A model generated the notes under the pieces. That model was not told where the DNA came from and searched no databases. It saw nothing but the letters and a program-made list of their open reading frames with translations. A DNA stretch of 40,137 nt from Escherichia phage vB_Eco_Bam: the sequence record OW991346, one strand, 5' to 3'. The position numbers and the translations under genes were made by a program. Below, in pieces: positions 2,750 through 39,924 of this stretch (the first letter of the stretch is position 1; the number at the start of each line of letters is the position of its first letter).

Positions 2750-3247
2750 ATGGTTGACTTTTCTGCTGTTGCTGCTGTTGGTTGTGGTGTTCTGAGCATT
2801 GTGTCTTGCGTCCTGATGTCTAAGCGAAGCATGGACAAGGAAGACATGAAGGTACTGCGCGGCCAAGTCCATGAGTTGAACCAAAAGCTGAAGGCTGAAA
2901 AAGAGTACAACGAGTACATGAAGAAAGACTACAAGTCACGCGAGATTGACTGGATGGGCAAGGTCATTGATGAACAACGGGTAGCCAAGGTGCTGCGTGA
3001 CGAGTTAGGTAAAGCACGTAAGCAACTGAACGAGAAGTTACAACCTGCTACTGTGCAGTGTGACGGGGTGTCTATCCGCTTGGACTCCAAGACTTCAATG
3101 AACTTCTCGGTAGGAAAAGTGATTAAAGAACTGTCACTCTCTGTGCTCGGTAACACTGTGACGGTCACTGTAGTTAAACACAATGGAATTGTTAAATCAC
3201 ATACATTCCAGAACGTGAGCTATAGTTACCGACAAGCGCAGCAATAA
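2750..3247 (+). CDS. hypothetical membrane-anchored coiled-coil protein
   Basis: 165-aa ORF with RBS AGGAGG 7 nt upstream of ATG; N-terminal hydrophobic helix (FSAVAAVGCGVLSIVSCVLM), then a charged heptad-like region, then a beta-rich C-terminus. No recognisable T7 counterpart. Confidence 0.6.
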   Translation: MVDFSAVAAVGCGVLSIVSCVLMSKRSMDKEDMKVLRGQVHELNQKLKAEKEYNEYMKKDYKSREIDWMGKVIDEQRVAKVLRDELGKARKQLNEKLQPATVQCDGVSIRLDSKTSMNFSVGKVIKELSLSVLGNTVTVTVVKHNGIVKSHTFQNVSYSYRQAQQ

Positions 3248-6396: not shown

Positions 6397-6401
6397 ACTC
6401 T

Positions 6402-6451
6402 AAGATAAAACTCAAGGTCATTCGCACAGAGTGGCCTTTATGATTTATCTT
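6402..6451 (+). promoter_or_regulatory. RNase III-type processing site (two-stem hairpin)
   Basis: Upper stem AAGGTCATTC / GAGTGGCCTT (10 bp with G-U pairs), lower stem AAGATAAA / TTTATCTT, internal loop ACTC / TATGA; member of a six-copy family. Confidence 0.55.
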
Positions 6452-6480
6452 TGTTCAATAAACAACCAATGAGGTAAACA

Positions 6481-8867: not shown

Positions 8868-9050
8868 ATGAAAGGTGCTATTATCTTCTACATTGTGATG
8901 ACTCTGCTGGCTTGTGCTGGTTGGATTACCAACATCGTCAATGTAATTACAGGCTTCCACCATGAGGTCGGTATCCTGTTTGTTGCTCAGTGCTTTGGCA
9001 TCGCCGCCTTCCCTCTTGGGTCTGTGCTGGGCATCGCCTCTTGGTTCTAA
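8868..9050 (+). CDS. hypothetical small membrane protein (two predicted TM helices)
   Basis: 60 aa; two hydrophobic segments; GGAGA 7 nt upstream of ATG. Confidence 0.5.
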   Translation: MKGAIIFYIVMTLLACAGWITNIVNVITGFHHEVGILFVAQCFGIAAFPLGSVLGIASWF

Positions 9051-9095: not shown

Positions 9096-9371
9096 ATGTC
9101 TATCGTTGCTAAAGTTCTGCCCGCTGTTCTGCGCTTTGTTATTCGTGCTTCTGTTAAAGCTCTGACCTCTGAGGTTAACGGCTCTGAAGCCAAGCGTAAG
9201 GCAATCCAAAAGAAACACGATGCGAAAGAAGCAAAGCTGCACACTAAGATTGAGGAGCTGCGCAAGCAACGTGAAGCTATCCGGTCTGCTCGTACCGAAG
9301 AAGTGTTTGCCAATACACGTAAGACACAGCAAGCACAAGACATGCTGGACAAACTGAGCAAGCTCGCCTAA
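9096..9371 (+). CDS. hypothetical coiled-coil protein
   Basis: 91 aa; RBS AAGGAGA; amphipathic N-terminus then charged helical region. Confidence 0.55.
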   Translation: MSIVAKVLPAVLRFVIRASVKALTSEVNGSEAKRKAIQKKHDAKEAKLHTKIEELRKQREAIRSARTEEVFANTRKTQQAQDMLDKLSKLA

Positions 9372-10631: not shown

Positions 10632-11083
10632 AGACTAAATTTAAGAAACGTCCTGAGACTACCAAGATTGTAGTCCACTGTTCGGCTACCCGTGAGGACA
10701 AAGACTTTGGTGTGCGTGACATCCGCCTGTGGCATAAAGCTAAAGGTTGGCTGGATGTAGGCTACCACTACGTTATCAAGCGTGATGGTACTATCGAAGA
10801 AGGTCGTCCTGATGATGTAATCGGTGCAGGTGCAGAGGGTCACAACACTGACTCAATCCACATCTGTCTGGTTGGTGGTCTGGACAAGGAGGGCAATACA
10901 CTCGAAGGCTTCCACAATGCGTTCACTGACGCTCAGGAGGTGTCTCTGTTCCACCTGATTGCTGCAATGGAGGAGAAGTATCCTACCGTTCGCGTAGTGT
11001 GTGGACACCGCGACCTGCCTCGTGTAGCCAAAGCGTGTCCTTGCTTCGATGTCGTTAAGTGGCTGGAAGAAGTGGTAGTCTAA
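10628..11083 (+). CDS. gp3.5: lysozyme / N-acetylmuramoyl-L-alanine amidase (T7 gp3.5-like)
   Basis: 151 aa, same length as T7 lysozyme; VHCSAT, WLDVGYHYVIKRDGT, ICLVGG match T7 gp3.5. Confidence 0.95.
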   Translation: MKTKFKKRPETTKIVVHCSATREDKDFGVRDIRLWHKAKGWLDVGYHYVIKRDGTIEEGRPDDVIGAGAEGHNTDSIHICLVGGLDKEGNTLEGFHNAFTDAQEVSLFHLIAAMEEKYPTVRVVCGHRDLPRVAKACPCFDVVKWLEEVVV

Positions 11084-11131
11084 GTTACATACTCAAGGTC
11101 ATCCGTAATGGGTGGCCTTTATGAATGTAAT
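11084..11131 (+). promoter_or_regulatory. RNase III-type processing site (R3.8 analog)
   Basis: Upper stem AAGGTCATCC / GGGTGGCCTT, lower stem GTTACAT / ATGTAAT; directly after the lysozyme stop, as T7 R3.8. Confidence 0.55.
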
Positions 11132-11150
11132 TAACACCCACTATTGGTAT
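11129..11150 (+). promoter_or_regulatory. phage RNAP promoter (AATTAACACCCACTATTGGTAT)
   Basis: Consensus match through +2; overlaps the 3' arm of an RNase III-like structure. Confidence 0.65.
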
Positions 11151-15710: not shown

Positions 15711-15955
15711 AACTCTGCGTTAACTGTAAGTATTGCCGAGTTGTTCCCTGTGGTGACATCTCTGCTGCCTACTACGAGTGTCTTGCTAAGGCACCTGAGG
15801 TTAACGTTGTCACAGGTGACGAGAAGTATTCGTATTGTTCTGTCGTAAGGAACAAAGAGTGCAAAGGACAGTGGTATGTAAAGAAAGAACCTATCCCTGA
15901 GCAAGTACAGGGTACGTTCAGAAAGATTATCACTTGGATTAGCAATAACTTTTAG
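15683..15955 (+). CDS. hypothetical Cys-rich protein
   Basis: 90 aa with no internal Met, so a non-ATG start is required; CxxC-type spacing (CVNCKYC, CGD, C...C). Confidence 0.35.
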   Translation: MDTKQRQDLKLCVNCKYCRVVPCGDISAAYYECLAKAPEVNVVTGDEKYSYCSVVRNKECKGQWYVKKEPIPEQVQGTFRKIITWISNNF

Positions 15956-16000
15956 TTATATCATCAAGGTCATTCTTAGGAGTGGCCTTCATTGGTATAA
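15956..16000 (+). promoter_or_regulatory. RNase III-type processing site (R6.5 analog)
   Basis: Upper stem AAGGTCATTC-TTAG-GAGTGGCCTT; lower stem TTATATCA / TGGTATAA. Confidence 0.55.
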
Positions 16001-17235: not shown

Positions 17236-18840
17236 ATGGCTGAAGTTAAACGTGAAGGTCTAGCTGCTGAAGGTGCAGCCAAGACATATGAGCGTTTGAA
17301 GAATGACCGTAACGACTACGTGACCCGTGCAGAGGACTGTGCCAAGTACACCATTCCTAGTCTGTTCCCTAAGGATTCAGACGATGGTGGTACGAGTTAT
17401 ACGACTCCTTGGCAGTCCATTGGTGCTCGCGGTCTGAACAACATTAGCGCAAAGGTAAACCTAGCGTTGTTCCCTGTAGGTGCGCCTTTCTTCAAACTGA
17501 ATATCTCTGAGCTAGAGCTGAAGCAAATCATCACCGATTCGTCTGCACTTCAAGATGTAGCACAAGGTCTGTCGATGGTTGAGCGTATTGTTCTTAGCTA
17601 CATGGAGGCCAACGGTTATCGAACTTCTCTGGTTGAAGCTATTCGTCAACTCTTTGTTAGCGGTAACGTGCTGCTGTACGTGACCAATCCTGACGAGATG
17701 ATGGATGGTGAAATGGCTGGTCTGAAGGTCTACCGATTGCCGTCCTATGTAGTTGAACGAGATGGATTCGATAACGTCTTGCAGATTGTAGCAGTCGATA
17801 AGATTGCCCGCGTAGCGTTACCTGAAGACATCCAATCTGCTATCGCTGAGGAGACTACCGATGAAAACCTGACAGAAGAAGTCGAGATTTACACTCACAT
17901 CTACCGTAACTCTGAGACACAAATGTTCACAGTTTATCAGGAGATTGAGGGTGAAATCGTAGCTGGCTCTGAAGGTGAGTACCCATTGGATGCTTGCCCT
18001 TGGATTCCTGTACGTCTTATCAAGATGCCTAACGAGGACTATGGACGTTCGTTCGTAGAAGAATACCTCGGTGACTTGAAGTCATTGGAGGCTCTGTACG
18101 AGGCTATGATTAAGATGTCCATGATTGCCGCTAAGGTTCTGTTCATGGTTAACCCTAACGGACAGACTCAGGTTCGCCGTATGGCTAAGGCCAACACAGG
18201 TGACTTTGTAGCTGGTCGTAAGGAAGACATCGGAGTATTCCAGTTAGAGAAACAACAGGACTTCAACACAGCGAAGATTGTAGCTGACACCATTGAGGCT
18301 CGCTTGTCGTATGCCTTCATGTTGAACTCTGCGGTACAACGCGGTGGTGACCGTGTTACTGCTGAGGAGATTCGCTATGTGGCTGGTGAATTGGAGGACA
18401 CTCTGGGTGGTATCTATTCGTTACTGTCCCAAGAGTTACAGATGCCTTTAGTCCGCATCCTGTTGCGTGTACTGGAAGCTACCTCGAAGATTCCTAACTT
18501 GCCTAAGGAAGCTGTTGAACCTGCTGTTGCTACTGGTCTGGAAGCTCTGGGTCGTGGTCATGACCTTGACAAGCTGAATATGTTCGTTAACGGTATTGCT
18601 ACTCTGTCTGCAATCCAAGACGAAGACCTGAACATGCGTGACATTAAGATGCGCTACGCTAACTCTCTGGGTATGGACACTGCTGGTATGATTCTGACTC
18701 CTGAGGAGAAACAACAGAAGATGGCTGAAATGGCTCAACAACAGGCCATGATGCAAGGTGGTGCCGCTGCGGGTGGCGTAATGGGTCAAGCTGGTGGTCA
18801 AGCAATGGCTGAACAAGCTGCTCAGATGATGCAACAATAA
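17236..18840 (+). CDS. gp8: portal (head-to-tail connector) protein (T7 gp8-like)
   Basis: 534 aa (T7 gp8 is 536 aa); position immediately before scaffold and capsid; Gln/Ala/Gly-rich C-terminus. Confidence 0.95.
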   Translation: MAEVKREGLAAEGAAKTYERLKNDRNDYVTRAEDCAKYTIPSLFPKDSDDGGTSYTTPWQSIGARGLNNISAKVNLALFPVGAPFFKLNISELELKQIITDSSALQDVAQGLSMVERIVLSYMEANGYRTSLVEAIRQLFVSGNVLLYVTNPDEMMDGEMAGLKVYRLPSYVVERDGFDNVLQIVAVDKIARVALPEDIQSAIAEETTDENLTEEVEIYTHIYRNSETQMFTVYQEIEGEIVAGSEGEYPLDACPWIPVRLIKMPNEDYGRSFVEEYLGDLKSLEALYEAMIKMSMIAAKVLFMVNPNGQTQVRRMAKANTGDFVAGRKEDIGVFQLEKQQDFNTAKIVADTIEARLSYAFMLNSAVQRGGDRVTAEEIRYVAGELEDTLGGIYSLLSQELQMPLVRILLRVLEATSKIPNLPKEAVEPAVATGLEALGRGHDLDKLNMFVNGIATLSAIQDEDLNMRDIKMRYANSLGMDTAGMILTPEEKQQKMAEMAQQQAMMQGGAAAGGVMGQAGGQAMAEQAAQMMQQ

Positions 18841-18860
18841 TTAACACCCACTATTGGAGA
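18839..18860 (+). promoter_or_regulatory. phage RNAP promoter (AATTAACACCCACTATTGGAGA), copy 1 of a duplicated pair
   Basis: Exact consensus, overlapping the portal stop codon. Confidence 0.8.
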
Positions 18861-18965
18861 GTCAACAACAGGCCATGATGCAAGGTGGTGCCGCTGCGGG
18901 TGGCGTAATGGGTCAAGCTGGTGGTCAAGCAATGGCTGAACAAGCTGCTCAGATGATGCAACAAT

Positions 18966-18987
18966 AATTAACACCCACTATTGGAGA
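18966..18987 (+). promoter_or_regulatory. phage RNAP promoter (AATTAACACCCACTATTGGAGA), copy 2 of a duplicated pair
   Basis: Exact consensus, 127 bp downstream of copy 1 within a tandem duplication. Confidence 0.8.
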
Positions 18988-19034
18988 GATGAACAATTTG
19001 TCTCTCCTTAGTGATTAACTTAATGGAGGAAACA

Positions 19035-31100: not shown

Positions 31101-32521
31101 ACCGTACTAACCTTGACCAACTGACCCGATTGATTACTGGCCGCCGTAGAGCTGAAGACCCTGCGTCTGCCTTGGTGACTGCAATTCGTGGTCTGCAAGA
31201 TTGGTCGTTCCTGTCTAACTCTGCGCAGATGTGGGTGAACAACCTAACTGAAGTATCAGGGTGGGCAACTAACCGGATGATGTTTGTGGCTCGTAATGGT
31301 GTCAAAGGTCTGAACCAACTGTTGAACCCAGAAACGAAGTTCTCTAAGGCTGACCTGAAGGACTTTGCTGATGGTCTGTTCGGCTATGACCTGAACACTT
31401 CGTTGTTACCTTCCTACCGGAACATCAAAGACCAACTGATTAAGACAGGTGCTAGCGAACGTGCTGCTTCAATCGCTGCTGGTATTCGTACAAGTGGTGC
31501 ATTGGCTGCAAGTCATAAGTACAACATCTACACTAAGCTGTTGAACAAGACTACTGAAGGTCTGGTCAATATGGCACGTAGTGGTGTACTGAGTGACATC
31601 ACACACGAAGCATTCGGTGGTGTGCGTATCAATAAGGCTATCTTGAGGAATGCCTCAATCACTGAGAAACAGTATGCAGGTGTCTTGGATATGTTACGTC
31701 AGCACATCAAAGTGCAAGACGGTAAGTATGTCCCTGATGTGCAGGCCATTAAGCGTGACGTTAGGTCTAATGACCTGTGGCGCTTAGCGGACTACATTGC
31801 GTCTGACTCTGTGATGCGAACAAACAAGGTGGGCTTCAACTATGTGGCTAAACCTAATGCCTTTATGAACCTTGCGTTGCAGTTCAAGTCCTTCATGTTG
31901 AAGGGTCTGAATGCTCGCACTGTTCGTATGTGGCATGAGTCATTCCAAGGTAAGTCTATTGACAACGCTATGCGAGTTATCGTTGGTGCTGGTATCACTG
32001 GTGCTATCTGGGCTGCACAGGCTCACTACCGTTCTATTGGTATTCCACCTGAGCAACGCCAAGAGTACCTTGAGCGTATGTTAGACCCTAGCATGGTAGC
32101 TTATCAGGCATTCTCACGTAGTGCTGAGATGGGTACTGTACTTGGTGGTGTAAACCTCGCGTTGACTCCATTCACAGACAGTGACCTGTTCCGTTTAGGT
32201 CGTTCTACCGTAGACCCTGTACGGGCTATGAAAGGACGCTCACCTTTACGTGCAGACGTTCTGAATCAACAAGCTGTCGGTGAACAACTTGGTGACGCTG
32301 TGTACAACACAATGCCAGCCTTGAAGTTCATTGGTACTGCTGGTGTCCTTCCGGCTAACGCTGTGCAATGGGCACTTGCCGACCACGGCTATCAGTCTGA
32401 CATGCAGGCTCGTACCTTCTTTGAGAACTTAGCGTCTGCTGCTCCTAATGCTCCTGAGATTCAGTGGTTAATCGGGATGATGGCACAAGATGCAGGTGCT
32501 TCAGGTAAGGGTATGTGGTAA
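28196..32521 (+). CDS. gp16: internal virion protein D with N-terminal lytic transglycosylase domain (T7 gp16-like)
   Basis: 1441 aa; N-terminal SLT-like motif (GMIESGLKADASSGVAKGLFQFTKTTW with catalytic-type ES); size and position as T7 gp16. Confidence 0.92.
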   Translation: MSYSTDTSSTSMYQRLKALSGDTHGLITTAGNELGLPEGQALKVGMIESGLKADASSGVAKGLFQFTKTTWDAMKQKYGAEYGIDPTASRTDPVANTILGVAYLKENATNYQSTFGKDPELVDLYMGHFLGQSGRNQFLKAMEQNPNAPAYAVVGKRSVANNKDVFFKKDGTARTLNEVYQMYSNKLSATELEQDMKTDRLKMDIQDELLWKTLGRSQDGSANATLSTGTAPSTPNFDVSLSDSKPQSIADALSSYGLQKPEDTVEKDERSFFDGAWEAAKAEIRLSPIGRDLREKYIQSGAPVEWDSAAAALRESFSGLSQSEMFTGNINPLEPMDITPEMWNTILSNGVDKKWMEYIKMSANPQDLVNRVQMAQEMQRADQARQAAATGGQLVGGIAGAFGDPLTFATGGTSAGGSLMTRLFVAGTEAAAGNAANEFSLSQETRGGVETNIAAAALGGFAGGVALRGLGEAFTNMSAAGRMRARQESIDAGVPDVTARPDVEVPEGKTWVEKPDEAGAVVDELGNTHSATSFGNPKVMEAVEANKGIELGGLNSISYDLLRSESTETRTIAQDLVRSPTGIKGGGSGVTRMTAEDYLGRLEGQDNLIYTQAMKAREKAYEHSMFDLQGGRNAREAMERQVVEAIESGDFSRLTPEMKEYADLLTTNFTEKHYAASNIAALSGNADAPNVLTSTIDPKRYVPAIYEEGKVIDAKMRFDPEGKYEGLYNEIQANWTAQWKNNHNGVRERMKALFDEDNSKFAEDLRAKLTKDKELDVVPEGKQKSARMEKQEGIQAKISKAEELRQKNAVKLQKARKPETRAKYEGLVQKYDKQLSELKTELEMTKPMDEDKLLEIYAQRYIERKSYGIAKNGEFTHSSSLEDVDLSDSLVGIENNNFTQERNIFDMAYESIAKDGEPFSLNDLRHFDMMNAMSMYNKRMNGDIAIHASTGKTTKDLKDAIVALPEGRDRTNLDQLTRLITGRRRAEDPASALVTAIRGLQDWSFLSNSAQMWVNNLTEVSGWATNRMMFVARNGVKGLNQLLNPETKFSKADLKDFADGLFGYDLNTSLLPSYRNIKDQLIKTGASERAASIAAGIRTSGALAASHKYNIYTKLLNKTTEGLVNMARSGVLSDITHEAFGGVRINKAILRNASITEKQYAGVLDMLRQHIKVQDGKYVPDVQAIKRDVRSNDLWRLADYIASDSVMRTNKVGFNYVAKPNAFMNLALQFKSFMLKGLNARTVRMWHESFQGKSIDNAMRVIVGAGITGAIWAAQAHYRSIGIPPEQRQEYLERMLDPSMVAYQAFSRSAEMGTVLGGVNLALTPFTDSDLFRLGRSTVDPVRAMKGRSPLRADVLNQQAVGEQLGDAVYNTMPALKFIGTAGVLPANAVQWALADHGYQSDMQARTFFENLASAAPNAPEIQWLIGMMAQDAGASGKGMW

Positions 32522-32541
32522 TTAACACCCACTATTGGAGA
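32520..32541 (+). promoter_or_regulatory. phage RNAP promoter upstream of the tail fiber gene (phi17 analog)
   Basis: Exact consensus overlapping the gp16 stop. Confidence 0.85.
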
Positions 32542-34475: not shown

Positions 34476-34820
34476 ATGTACTTAAACTATTCACAAGCTA
34501 TGCAGGCTTTGTTGGATGGTTATGATGTCATTCGGGAGAGCACAGGACGTGTTCTCTCTGTTGATAAGACCAACAACAATATGTTTGCCTACTGGCCTGA
34601 ACTTGGTGAAGGTCTGCGGGATACACCAATGAGTCAAGAAGACTTAGAGGCAACCGACTGGAAAATCTATGACCATAATGGTAACGATGCTCCTGAGGAC
34701 TCCTCTCAGTTCGACATCAAGGTTCCTGTGGACACCAAGCAACAACAAATTGATGAACTAACTGATAAGTTAGCAAATCTTGAACAGAAACTCATGGAGG
34801 TGCTAAATGCCAAGTCCTAA
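34476..34820 (+). CDS. hypothetical protein downstream of tail fiber
   Basis: 114 aa; strong RBS AAGGAGGA; acidic with a C-terminal coiled-coil-like segment; stop overlaps the next start. Confidence 0.6.
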   Translation: MYLNYSQAMQALLDGYDVIRESTGRVLSVDKTNNNMFAYWPELGEGLRDTPMSQEDLEATDWKIYDHNGNDAPEDSSQFDIKVPVDTKQQQIDELTDKLANLEQKLMEVLNAKS

Positions 34821-35892
34821 AGCTCAAGACACTGTTGAGTTCGGATGGTCTGGTACTGATGGTTATATTCGTAATGGAGGTAAGTACAACCTCCTTACGT
34901 CTAAGCCTAAGATGACCTTTGCGTATGACACAGTGATGTACTCAACTGACCCTGCCGTAGAGGATGTTCGGACAGTTGGACTGCAAGTGTTCCCACTTCA
35001 GCCTAACGAAATGTCTGAACTGAATGCCTACGCTGTGGCTCACTCAATCAATGACCCGTGGAATCCGGCAGACCCTGCTGACCCTGTTGGTAAACCTGAG
35101 CATCCTGTCACTAACATGATTTACTCGTTTGACACTGCGTCTGGCCGATTGGTTCCAGTCAATGTGTATGCCCAAGATGGTGACTTCTGGGTAGGTGACC
35201 AAGCGTCAACCAATGAGAAACGACTGGCTGTGTTACGTCAGGTTGGTAGTGGGTTTACTGCTGCCTTGGTTCACATTACCGATGCTGGTCATGTTCAGGT
35301 AACTCGAACAGATAATGCAGGTAATATGGTGTCTCTGGACATTGGAGATACAGATATTGGCATCACCACGAGTGCTGGCCGTAAGCGGTTTGTTACCGAG
35401 GATGAACTGCCTCCTCCGCCTCCACCTCCTGCTGCACCTGTTGTCCAGTCTATTGACTTGGTAGATACCGTGAAACTTGCAGGTGCAAACTACGTGTCTA
35501 ACACTGCTGTGCTAACTCAAACGTTGATGCAGGAGAATGGTACTGGCGACTACGTTGTGAAGCATCGCCTTGTCAGCTACGGCACGTTCAACTTCCCAGC
35601 TACATCATCAAACACTAAGTCAACCACATTGTCTTTGTCTGGGATGTTCTCTGGCAATCAATATGTGTTCTGTGACGAGATGACAATCAGTGGTTGGACT
35701 GTATCTGGTGGTTCTAACCCAACACAGCACAGTTATCGTATTGACCAGACCAAGCGACAGACAAACCAAATTGTTGTGCAAGCAAATGGTACGACTAACG
35801 GTGCTCTGACTGTCGCTGCCACTATTGTGATTGAGTTTAATCTGCCTAACCAAGACTACGGCTTAGGTGTCCCATTCCCTGAATTTGCGTAA
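34807..35892 (+). CDS. hypothetical protein, possible second tail-fiber / receptor-binding accessory protein
   Basis: 361 aa; RBS GGAGGT; beta-rich composition, internal PPPPPPP linker and a Ser/Thr/Gly/Asn-rich C-terminal half typical of adhesin-like domains. Function inferred from context only. Confidence 0.55.
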   Translation: MPSPKAQDTVEFGWSGTDGYIRNGGKYNLLTSKPKMTFAYDTVMYSTDPAVEDVRTVGLQVFPLQPNEMSELNAYAVAHSINDPWNPADPADPVGKPEHPVTNMIYSFDTASGRLVPVNVYAQDGDFWVGDQASTNEKRLAVLRQVGSGFTAALVHITDAGHVQVTRTDNAGNMVSLDIGDTDIGITTSAGRKRFVTEDELPPPPPPPAAPVVQSIDLVDTVKLAGANYVSNTAVLTQTLMQENGTGDYVVKHRLVSYGTFNFPATSSNTKSTTLSLSGMFSGNQYVFCDEMTISGWTVSGGSNPTQHSYRIDQTKRQTNQIVVQANGTTNGALTVAATIVIEFNLPNQDYGLGVPFPEFA

Positions 35893-35903
35893 GGAGGTAA
35901 ATC

Positions 35904-36044
35904 GTGAAGGTTAAAAAGCGTATTGTTGCCGCTGTGGTTCTGGCATCCCTGATTGTTCTGGGTGCTATCTTTGAAACCGACCTGACCAAGATGGCTGACG
36001 CTCTGGTGTCCGTCTCTTGCTCTATCGTTGAGTGTACACAATGA
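35904..36044 (+). CDS. hypothetical 46-aa single-pass membrane protein
   Basis: GTG start 5 nt after strong RBS GGAGGT; product MKVKKRIVAAVVLASLIVLGAIFETDLTKMADALVSVSCSIVECTQ has an N-terminal signal-anchor-like helix; stop overlaps the holin ATG (ATGA). Below the ORF-track cut-off. Confidence 0.45.
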   Translation: MKVKKRIVAAVVLASLIVLGAIFETDLTKMADALVSVSCSIVECTQ

Positions 36045-36250
36045 GTCTTGAACTTAACTTTGGAGATGCTGTAATCCGCTCTGCCCCTGTTGGTGGGGCG
36101 GTTGCAACAGACTTAGTAGCAAGGTTCATGGGTCTAACACTTCACGAGTGGTTCTATGTAGCGGCCATAGGATACACTTGCATTCAAGGGTGGGCAGTAA
36201 TCTATAAGACTCTCAAGAAGTACAAGGAGGATAATGTAAATGACACCTAA
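36041..36250 (+). CDS. gp17.5: holin (T7 gp17.5-like)
   Basis: 69 aa from ATG 36041; LNEWFYVAAIGYT resembles T7 holin (LNEWFYVAAIAYT). Confidence 0.8.
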   Translation: MSLELNFGDAVIRSAPVGGAVATDLVARFMGLTLHEWFYVAAIGYTCIQGWAVIYKTLKKYKEDNVNDT

Positions 36251-36485
36251 AGAGTTTGAGCTATTACTTCAGGAACTAGACTACGAAGCTGCAAAGCTGA
36301 TGTTACAAGACCTGAAGAACGACGAGAAGCGTAACCCTCAGTTGTTTAACGCTGTGGTTCGCATGTTGGAACGCCACAAGCATACAATTGCAAAGGTTGT
36401 TCCTGATGAAAGCATTCTGACCAGTCTTGCGTCTGAACTACCAGACCTGACTGAAGATGAACAATATGGAGGTATCTTACAATGA
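36240..36485 (+). CDS. gp18: terminase small subunit (T7 gp18-like)
   Basis: 81 aa; RNPQLFNAVVRMLERHK matches T7 gp18 (RSPQLYNAIVRMLDRHK); RBS AAGGAGG. Confidence 0.9.
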   Translation: MTPKEFELLLQELDYEAAKLMLQDLKNDEKRNPQLFNAVVRMLERHKHTIAKVVPDESILTSLASELPDLTEDEQYGGILQ

Positions 36486-36625
36486 ACCGTATCGTAACTT
36501 GGGTTCTGTTGGTCTGTGTGTGGACTGCTGTTCTGCTGAGTCTCAGTGGTTGCACCATTATGATTGACAGTCCAAACTCACAACCAATGGTTGAATGTGG
36601 TGACTTGTTAGGTATCACCCTGTAA
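36482..36625 (+). CDS. hypothetical 47-aa lipoprotein
   Basis: ATG overlaps the gp18 stop; RBS GGAGG 9 nt upstream; signal peptide with lipobox LSLSGC, leaving a ~24-aa mature peptide (CTIMIDSPNSQPMVECGDLLGITL). Below the ORF-track cut-off. Confidence 0.45.
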   Translation: MNRIVTWVLLVCVWTAVLLSLSGCTIMIDSPNSQPMVECGDLLGITL

Positions 36626-36674
36626 GTTATATACTCAAGGTCATTCGCGTAGAGTGGCCTTTATGAATATAACT
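36625..36674 (+). promoter_or_regulatory. RNase III-type processing site (R18.5 analog)
   Basis: Upper stem AAGGTCATTC-GCGTA-GAGTGGCCTT; perfect 8-bp lower stem AGTTATAT / ATATAACT. Confidence 0.6.
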
Positions 36675-36695
36675 AGCAACTAAGGAGGTTAAATT

Positions 36696-36941
36696 ATGAC
36701 CGAAAGTGATAACGCTACGCAAAATCTGAGTAGAAGTCCTTATGGATTATGGTCAGAAATTGAAGGATTGCGTAGTCTGGCAGACACTTTGATAGGTGGA
36801 GAGATGCCTATGGAGGTGTACAACGCTCTGACTCCTGAGCAAAAGAAGATTACCCTTAACGTAACCAAGGCGTGTTCACAATGTGCTACTGCCTTAGAGA
36901 AGTTTCAAGAGGAGGTACTAAATGTCGGCTGCCCAAAGTAA
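36696..36941 (+). CDS. hypothetical protein (T7 gene 18.5 position, no transmembrane segment)
   Basis: 81 aa; strong RBS AAGGAGGT; follows the RNase III-like site as T7 gene 18.5 does, but has no hydrophobic N-terminus. Confidence 0.55.
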
Positions 36942-39774: not shown

Positions 39775-39803
39775 TTGACAATGTTCAAGTTAAAATGTAA
39801 AGT
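39775..39803 (+). promoter_or_regulatory. possible sigma70-type promoter (A3-like), overlapping a small ORF start
   Basis: TTGACA, 17-bp spacer, TAAAGT; overlaps the RBS and ATG of the 39781 ORF, so one of the two calls may be wrong. Confidence 0.3.
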
Positions 39804-39924
39804 GATGCCAATCCACAACAAACAGGGTCACACAGTATGTACACCTGATGGATTTGCGATGAATGCTCGTGTTGAACGACTGAAGCGTGAACTCAAGATG
39901 AATCGTATGCTGAACAACATCTAA
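39781..39924 (+). CDS. hypothetical small early protein
   Basis: 47 aa; RBS AGGAG 6 nt upstream of ATG; downstream of sigma70-type promoters; basic. Confidence 0.4.
   Translation: MFKLKCKVMPIHNKQGHTVCTPDGFAMNARVERLKRELKMNRMLNNI

Follow-up and report, generated by a model that had tools for sequence, protein, structure and literature searches.

The closest described counterparts of the genes considered here are very small putative spanins. In their catalogue, Kongari et al. (2018, PMC6139136) placed VP4, VP3, four ICP3 isolates and Vibrio N4 in a "VP4" family of separated two-component spanins, in which the i-spanin is a 47-amino-acid (aa) protein with a 21-residue periplasmic part and the o-spanin is a 65-aa lipoprotein, and they likewise listed the 49-aa proteins of K1-5, K1E and SP6 as i-spanins. 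According to the same catalogue (PMC6139136), the combined periplasmic length of spanin pairs ranges from 62 to 300 residues, with the 52-aa pair of F108 flagged by the curators as "Too short"; periplasmic cysteines occur in ~96% of the spanins, a separation of i- and o-genes of up to roughly 1 kb is accepted, and no coiled coil is listed for the ICP3 and K1-5 homologues. Here we analyse the lysis cassette of Escherichia phage vB_Eco_Bam in a stretch of 40,137 nucleotides (nt; sequence record OW991346), which we call the window. Genes are named Mak_0xx after the public record of Escherichia phage vB_Eco_Mak; in the cassette region, which is 99.9% identical to vB_Eco_Mak (OX001577.1) and its near-twin vB_Eco_Titus, a window coordinate equals the record coordinate minus 80. 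Our sequence comparisons point to Mak_041, a 46-aa candidate inner-membrane protein, and Mak_044, a 47-aa candidate outer-membrane lipoprotein, as a minimal, split version of the catalogued VP4/SP6-type mini spanin, a reading for and against which we find the balance about even. The pair is not new in kind, as its family has already been catalogued, and its novelty is below what an earlier reading of the window, made from the sequence alone (the sequence-only reading), had implied. In the public record Mak_041, Mak_044 and the neighbouring Mak_045 are all labelled "hypothetical protein".

Every open reading frame (ORF) named in the sequence-only reading was found at its given coordinates in the ORF list of the window and in the sequence itself. 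It had described the first of them as a 46-aa signal-anchor protein coupled upstream of the holin, and this holds. Mak_041 starts with GTG, 5 nt past the ribosome-binding site AAGGAGGT (ATG stands at the same position in a 91%-identical relative), and its stop codon overlaps the holin start as ATGA (36041-36044). The predicted layout is a K-rich cytoplasmic N-tail (residues 1-6), a transmembrane domain (TMD; 7-23) and a periplasmic tail of 21-23 aa that ends C39-x4-C44-T-Q. Four K/R residues stand ahead of the 17-residue hydrophobic helix (Kyte-Doolittle 2.97, residues 7-23) and the tail behind it is acidic, which predicts a type II inner-membrane protein with a single N-terminal TMD and N-in/C-out topology. 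An AlphaFold2 (AF2) monomer model, of low confidence and used for secondary structure only (predicted local distance difference test score, pLDDT, 66), has helices at 2-22 and 24-41. Mak_041 has no match in Pfam, including the T7 holin model PF10746, which matches the neighbouring gene.

Mak_041 belongs to the rare PHROG family 4712, which also includes proteins of N4 (7e-23) and K1-5 (3e-27), with profile matches among the relatives of 1e-18 to 1e-23; it is thereby homologous to the catalogued i-spanins of VP4/ICP3/N4 and of K1-5/K1E/SP6. The residues K4, K5, R6, A10, G20, A21, D26, L27, C39 and C44 are invariant in alignments of the family, and its traits, a K/R-rich N-tail, one TMD, a D-L interface and a terminal C-x4-C, are all present in Mak_041. 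Mean pairwise identity is 0.78 in the K-rich tail, 0.68 in the C-x4-C end, 0.67 in the D-L interface and 0.51 in the membrane helix. The conserved periplasmic end would fit a periplasmic partner, and the sequence-specific helix, with its invariant A10, G20 and A21, would fit packing on another membrane protein. Searched in full with HMMER, 1.84 billion representative proteins yielded only about ten clusters, and the true members are all 46-49 aa long; they are therefore not truncated Rz proteins. Together with IMG/VR, JGI metagenomes and a 5.8-billion-protein index, this search enlarged the family by only a few members, none of them longer.

The second gene had been described as encoding a 47-aa lipoprotein coupled to the end of the small terminase gene, as it does: its start overlaps the small-terminase stop as ATGA (36482-36485), with GGAGGT upstream. 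The predicted signal peptide MNRIVTWVLLVCVWTAVLLSLSG is encoded at 36482-36550 and the predicted lipidated Cys24 at 36551-36553, in a canonical L-S-G-C24 lipobox that is followed by Thr at +2 and Ile at +3, with no Asp at +2. The mature peptide CTIMIDSPNSQPMVECGDLLGITL has 24 aa, a net charge of about -3 and one additional Cys at mature position 17, which the lipoproteins of L005/L014, Aeromonas and Vibrio phages (see below) do not have. It has no C-terminal hydrophobic helix and so does not qualify as a unimolecular spanin of the T1 gp11 kind. Mak_044 has no match in Pfam (Entericidin included), PHROG or NCBIfam.

Comparison with L012, a metagenomic locus, shows that both small ORFs are real genes under purifying selection. 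The ratio of non-synonymous to synonymous changes per site (pN/pS) is 0.17 for Mak_041, while the cassette neighbours, the holin and the small terminase, give 0.20 and 0.08. In Mak_044 the constraint lies on the mature peptide (0.07; 4 synonymous changes and 1 non-synonymous), not on the signal peptide (0.69), which has diverged freely yet still has a lipobox and a hydrophobic core. Such divergence would be expected of an exported lipopeptide whose functional part is the mature one. Both proteins also have predicted periplasmic cysteines: C39 and C44 in Mak_041, and mature position 17 in Mak_044.

No canonical spanin was found elsewhere in the window, as the sequence-only reading had proposed. 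A tblastn search of the window with the Rz proteins of gh-1 and phiAS7 gave a best E of 0.04, and six-frame scans of the whole window, strict and relaxed, found no credible lipobox ORF other than 36482-36625. In particular, the ORF list and the six-frame scan contain no embedded lipobox ORF in the T7-type Rz slot, and no further candidate for a type II membrane protein or lipoprotein was found in Mak besides Mak_041 and Mak_044. The other lipobox-scan matches are out-of-frame fragments or Mak_011, in which 'LLAC' mimics a lipobox and which looks like an integral membrane protein with two TMDs. Mak_011 (8868-9050) encodes 60 aa with two hydrophobic helices, lies directly 3' of the primase/helicase gene and matches phrog_6006 (unknown function). 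Mak_002 (2750-3247) encodes a 165-aa protein that starts with a membrane helix, continues as a helical, lysine-rich stretch and ends in a beta-rich part, and has no relatives in IMG/VR or PHROGs. We considered it as a distant i-spanin and rejected it: with no K/R before the helix and five after it, it is predicted to be N-out/C-in, and it is an early gene right behind the RNA polymerase gene with no lipoprotein frame near it.

The gene neighbourhoods of relatives argue further for a pair. The members of the family in our phage collection come from 29 Vibrio, 90 SP6-like and four Aeromonas phages and from Mak/Titus; the hosts of the SP6-like phages are E. coli, Salmonella, Citrobacter, Klebsiella and Raoultella. 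Mak and Titus, both unclassified Studiervirinae, stand closest to Aeromonas T7-like phages and to Vibrio Chatterjeevirus, and it is these relatives that keep both genes adjacent or overlapping in the Rz/Rz1 position. In the Aeromonas phages T7-Ah, PT2 and L017 a 46-aa homologue (57-59% identical) stands directly behind the small terminase gene, in the T7 18.5/18.7 slot, where a gene for a 50-51-aa lipoprotein (...LILSG|CTVVMHSDHTELATEAKVAVEVMNGTL) overlaps or abuts it. The Vibrio phages N4, VP4 and ICP3 and the metagenomic L007, L009, L010 and L011 have the order small terminase, 46-aa homologue, 65-73-aa lipoprotein. Two uncultivated viral genomes from IMG/VR, L005 and L014, whose 46-aa protein is ~52-54% identical to that of Mak, have the split order of Mak (46-aa gene, holin, small terminase, lipoprotein), and their lipoprotein, with 24 mature residues (CVIVSDSPNASPIIEGGSLLEVHL), is clearly related to Mak_044. 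The metagenomic L012 and L013 (~91% nucleotide identity) have the five cassette genes in the identical order. A lipoprotein partner is thus found at every locus with enough flank, namely Mak, Titus, L012/L013, L005/L014, Aeromonas, Vibrio and K1-5. All compared phages that carry the 46-aa family have a T7-type holin in addition, and a second holin is therefore not needed. In Mak the two genes lie 437 nt apart with the holin and small terminase genes between them, within the distance of roughly 1 kb accepted by Kongari et al.

The position of Mak_040 marks the rearrangement that split the pair. This gene (34807-35892) encodes 361 aa, of which residues 1-87 match phrog_12315 and VN4_42 of Vibrio N4; past residue 87 come a PPPPPPPPAAP linker and a C-terminal domain that is unique. 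The Mak_040 homologue of N4 and T7-Ah sits between the holin and small terminase genes, and Mak_040 itself precedes Mak_041.

Several observations weigh against a spanin function for the pair. The VP4 and K1-5 entries carry the curators' mark "Too small?" (PMC6139136), and PHROG 4712 is labelled "holin" in PHROGs and in RefSeq (K1-5 gp47), as is N4 VN4_44. The literature searched contained no experiment on any family member that would test the holin or the i-spanin label, the mini pairs of VP4 and SP6 included; the KBNP1315 lysis paper tested holin and endolysin alone. In Mak and in L005/L014 the 46-aa gene is parted from the lipoprotein gene and coupled to that of the holin. Its membrane helix has invariant residues, whereas that of a classical i-spanin is an anchor only, and its periplasmic domain, at 21-23 aa, has no coiled coil and one short helix in the AF2 model (24-41, low confidence). 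Nor did hhalign support homology of Mak_044 with the Vibrio o-spanins, giving a probability of 4% for the mature short lipoproteins against those of Vibrio. Finally, the combined periplasmic length of 45-47 residues falls below both the catalogued range and the F108 pair and is shorter than that of any pair found in the spanin database. Fully extended, 47 residues reach ~16 nm, and as helices ~7 nm. The periplasm of E. coli measures some 20-25 nm across, which makes a bridge pre-formed in the manner of Rz/Rz1 unfeasible. A minimal spanin-like pair was one of three readings proposed from the sequence alone; it is the best supported of them, by the adjacent genes in relatives and the catalogued homologues.

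If Mak_041 and Mak_044 do act as a spanin equivalent, the T7-type holin would let the amidase destroy the peptidoglycan, after which the two proteins would cooperate to break the outer membrane as the last step of lysis. We would guess that they engage only with the wall gone and the inner membrane pressed on the outer one. The pair of Mak and those of the Aeromonas phages, which are almost as short, might then be contact-dependent mini-fusogens, a mechanistic class distinct from periplasm-spanning spanins, in which a 22-residue inner-membrane stub would meet a 24-residue lipopeptide after wall degradation, with turgor pressing the membranes together; we offer this extension tentatively and think it rather unlikely.

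The overlapping genes of some relatives raise a further possibility. In SP6-like phages the small genes after the endolysin gene encode the 49-aa protein, gp48 (65-73 aa, phrog_9219), in which the hydrophobic N-terminus is merely weak, and a lipoprotein (phrog_8971). The last two overlap out of frame (SP6 AY288927.2, L021, 1343-1637; K1-5, L018, 2442-2736), and such an overlap is the classical Rz/Rz1 signature. Similarly, in L005 (3074-3265) and L014 (1385-1573) the lipoprotein gene is overlapped out of frame by a 62-63-aa ORF that has a strong ribosome-binding site; the hydrophobic N-terminus of this ORF is a TMD or a cleavable signal (VTA|K). No overlapping ORF of this type is found in Mak, N4 or T7-Ah. 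In the SP6-like phages and L005/L014 the overlapping ORF may encode the true inner-membrane partner, or in L005/L014 a periplasmic one, and the 46-49-aa protein may be a third component, which also counts against Mak_041 as an i-spanin. Conceivably, the whole 46-49-aa family could be a third, unrecognised lysis component common to SP6-like and N4-like phages, in which case the labels "holin" and "i-spanin" would both be wrong. The labels themselves differ between records: the updated SP6 record names the 49-aa protein "i-spanin". That record puts "o-spanin" on the gp48 frame, and the K1-5 RefSeq record annotates only the lipoprotein frame, with the 49-aa protein as "holin".

The "holin" labels also bear on the main rival account, which we consider rather unlikely: Mak_041 may be a holin accessory whose helix contacts the T7-type holin, as an additional holin, an antiholin or a factor in lysis timing. 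Mak_044 would then act separately, by itself or together with a host partner, as a small lipopeptide of about the size of entericidin B that destabilises the outer membrane. In Mak, L012-L016 and L005 an ATGA couples the 46-aa gene to the holin gene, and the lipoprotein gene lies apart, the small helix residues A10, G20 and A21 are invariant, and the best-conserved segment is the cytoplasmic K-rich tail. A periplasmic tail too short for an i-spanin, and the other ORF over the lipoprotein gene in SP6-like and L005-like phages as a possible real partner, fit this account as well. The labels, however, are annotation only, and three of the five lineages have the gene coupled to that of the lipoprotein or placed beside that of the endolysin, not beside the holin gene. 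For an intramembrane protein the conserved periplasmic C-x4-C end would have no obvious role, Mak_041 has no charged cytoplasmic C-terminal tail of the kind typical of holins, and the missing Entericidin match of Mak_044 speaks against the comparison with entericidin B. An antiholin or holin-accessory function, the former proposed in the sequence-only reading, may yet apply to Mak_041, with the family label and the ATGA coupling in its favour.

The other two accounts fare worse. Superinfection exclusion or receptor masking by Mak_044 in the manner of T5 Llp or phi80 Cor, with Mak_041 functionally unrelated, had been suggested from the sequence alone and now appears very improbable. Mak_044 is indeed a small, predicted outer-membrane lipoprotein from a virulent phage, and the mature sequences differ among host genera. 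Its gene, though, belongs to the late operon, where it is located between the genes of the terminase subunits, neither in an early unit nor beside a receptor-binding protein, and the slot is likewise filled in Vibrio, Aeromonas and E. coli phages with different fibres; Pfam, PHROG and NCBIfam give no match, the mature peptide is a mere 24 aa, and the lipoprotein consistently co-occurs with the 46-aa protein. That the pair is a decaying remnant or has an envelope function unrelated to lysis, with Mak spanin-less and relying on a fragile outer membrane or another factor, strikes us as quite unlikely. It would agree with the loss in Mak_044 of the roughly 25-residue acidic C-terminal half of the Vibrio lipoproteins and with the dispensability of spanins in shaken cultures without added divalent cations, and ~13% of phages with Gram-negative hosts have no recognisable spanin (PMC6139136). 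Against decay stand the strong purifying selection on both mature products, the intact ribosome-binding sites and retained translational coupling, the family length fixed at 46-49 aa, and the maintenance of the split order in two lineages ~52% identical in the 46-aa protein. Another factor in the form of a cationic disruptin-like peptide was not found in the cassette, where the computed net charges are +1 for Mak_041, -2 for Mak_044 and -4 for Mak_045.

The features of the locus are collected in Table 1. The phage promoter consensus occurs in ~18 copies in the window, and after the last copy before the cassette the next is at ~38752; the repeat-family analysis found no copy between 32521 and 38752. 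The tail fibre through large terminase genes are therefore predicted to form one late transcription unit, which holds Mak_041 and Mak_044 along with the holin and terminase genes. The public record has no annotated terminators from 24465 to its end. The endolysin gene, 25 kb from the cassette as in T7, rounds out the lysis gene set.

Table 1. Features of the lysis cassette and associated elements, in window coordinates.
Feature	Position	Strand	Basis or remark
Endolysin, T7 gp3.5-type amidase, 151 aa	10628..11083	+	PF01510 Amidase_2 E = 5.5e-16
Final phage-RNA-polymerase promoter before the cassette	32520..32541	+	consensus AATTAACACCCACTATTGGAGA; repeat families D1-D4
Ribosome-binding site AAGGAGGT of Mak_041	35891..35898	+	read from sequence; kept in L012
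Mak_041, 46 aa, candidate inner-membrane component	35904..36044	+	ORF; phrog_4712 E = 1.5e-6; encodes MKVKKRIVAAVVLASLIVLGAIFETDLTKMADALVSVSCSIVECTQ
T7 gp17.5-type holin, 69 aa	36041..36250	+	PF10746 E = 7e-11; phrog_920 E = 7e-18
Small terminase subunit, gp18-like, 81 aa	36240..36485	+	phrog_1351 E = 3e-24; sits between the two candidate components
Mak_044, 47-aa prolipoprotein, candidate outer-membrane component	36482..36625	+	ORF, lipobox, positional equivalents in relatives
Bipartite RNA hairpin	36623..36678	+	repeat families D8/D13; fold -22.4 kcal/mol, z = -3.8; kept in L012
Mak_045, 81 aa, soluble acidic helical orphan in gene-18.5 slot	36696..36941	+	overlaps start of large terminase

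Mak_045 appears to be a variable accessory gene, unrelated to the lysis pair. The sequence-only reading had it as a soluble protein without a transmembrane segment in the gene-18.5 slot, and our results agree: a hydropathy scan found no hydrophobic segment, and the AF2 model is all-helical (pLDDT 74). There is no match in Pfam, PHROG or NCBIfam and no significant fold match in BFVD. The gene is fast-evolving (pN/pS 0.56 against L012), and its relatives amount to 2 protein clusters in 5.8 billion, being confined to Mak/Bam/Titus and one 67%-identical cluster. In other relatives of the phage the slot holds small genes unrelated to Mak_045. Unrelated genes for small membrane proteins of 37 aa (L003, 2880-2993) and 41 aa (L005, 3320-3445) lie directly 3' of the lipoprotein gene, and the stretch between the terminase genes looks like a hotspot of genes for small envelope proteins.

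A hairpin separates the lipoprotein gene from Mak_045. It is one of four related bipartite hairpins (...CTCAAGGTCATYC...GRGTGGCCTTTATGA...) in the window, at 6400-6455, 11081-11136, 15949-15990 and 36623-36678. Two of the four have a phage promoter directly behind them, while the 36623 copy has a degenerate promoter-like tail instead. The family resembles the RNase III processing sites of T7, and the copy at 36623-36678 is at the position of T7 R18.5.

Some further features of the window lie outside the subject of the cassette. Mak_039 (34476-34820; 114 aa, net charge -12) lies between the tail fibre gene and Mak_040 and has a weak, sub-threshold match to the Pfam Tad2-like Thoeris anti-defence domain (E = 0.0022; 18.9 bits, cutoff 25). 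Two small, strongly cationic proteins, of net charge +10 and +7, are encoded outside the lysis region by Mak_012 (9096-9371) and Mak_048 (~39780-39923). At 18735-18988 the window has an exact 127-nt tandem duplication with a phage promoter inside, which is present as a single copy in the public Mak record. The two ends of that record overlap by 127 nt, and the window is the record rotated, starting at record position 207. Both the duplication and the end overlap look like artefacts of an assembler with k = 127 and not like biology.

Spanins are defined by spanning the periplasm, yet the catalogue itself doubted the size of the 47-49-aa "i-spanins", and databases conflict on the name. The choice between holin and i-spanin annotation concerns more than 120 sequenced phages. 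Mak, an E. coli phage, has the pair in its simplest natural form, with no overlapping extra ORF, a 24-residue lipopeptide and the two genes apart. Because no ORF overlaps and the genes are physically separate, either component could be deleted or expressed alone. This makes Mak a clean, genetically tractable case in which to ask whether ~46 periplasmic residues can disrupt the outer membrane; if functional, the Mak pair would lower the minimum size of a device for membrane fusion or disruption.

Among named systems, the VP4 family (VP4, VP3, ICP3, N4) shares with Mak a homologous 46-47-aa inner component with ~46-48% identity, the D-L and C-x4-C motifs and the same topology, a small outer-membrane lipoprotein as partner that starts C-T-[VI], a T7-type holin and an amidase endolysin, and these phages form one clade with Mak. 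It differs in that the Vibrio genes, which follow the small terminase gene, share 1 nt, whereas those of Mak are separated, and in that the mature lipoprotein has 49 aa and not 24, with an acidic tail that Mak does not have. The N4 o-spanin matches phrog_10167 at 4e-47 while Mak_044 does not match it. Visible resemblance between the two is limited to C-T-[VI]-x-[IV]-x-D-S, so that Mak_044 would correspond at best to the lipid-proximal half of the Vibrio protein. The 49-aa proteins of SP6 (gene 56), K1-5 (gp47) and K1E, also from enterobacterial phages, have PHROG 4712 membership, the length class and the C-terminal C-x4-C in common with Mak_041, and their phages, too, encode a lipoprotein and, as a separate gene, a T7-type holin. 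Unlike in Mak, the 49-aa gene stands beside that of the endolysin, the lipoprotein is phrog_8971 with 50 aa mature, and in SP6 a third ORF, gp48, lies over the lipoprotein gene.

With lambda Rz/Rz1 and T7 gp18.5/gp18.7 the Mak pair has in common the predicted topology of both parts, late expression and periplasmic cysteines, and the genomic slot of T7 18.5/18.7 is that of the pair in the relatives of Mak. There is no sequence similarity, however, Mak has no coiled coil, and its genes are neither embedded nor overlapped; lambda Rz and Rz1 together have roughly 170 periplasmic residues, against a length in Mak that cannot span the periplasm. The pair of Pasteurella phage F108 (25 + 27 periplasmic residues) is comparably extreme in its shortness, but the sequences are unrelated and the F108 i-component has no periplasmic cysteine. 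The disruptin gp28 of phiKT also comes from a T7-like coliphage without a canonical spanin. It is cationic and amphipathic with no membrane anchor, whereas the Mak products are predicted to be membrane-anchored and acidic, and Mak_045 is acidic as well.

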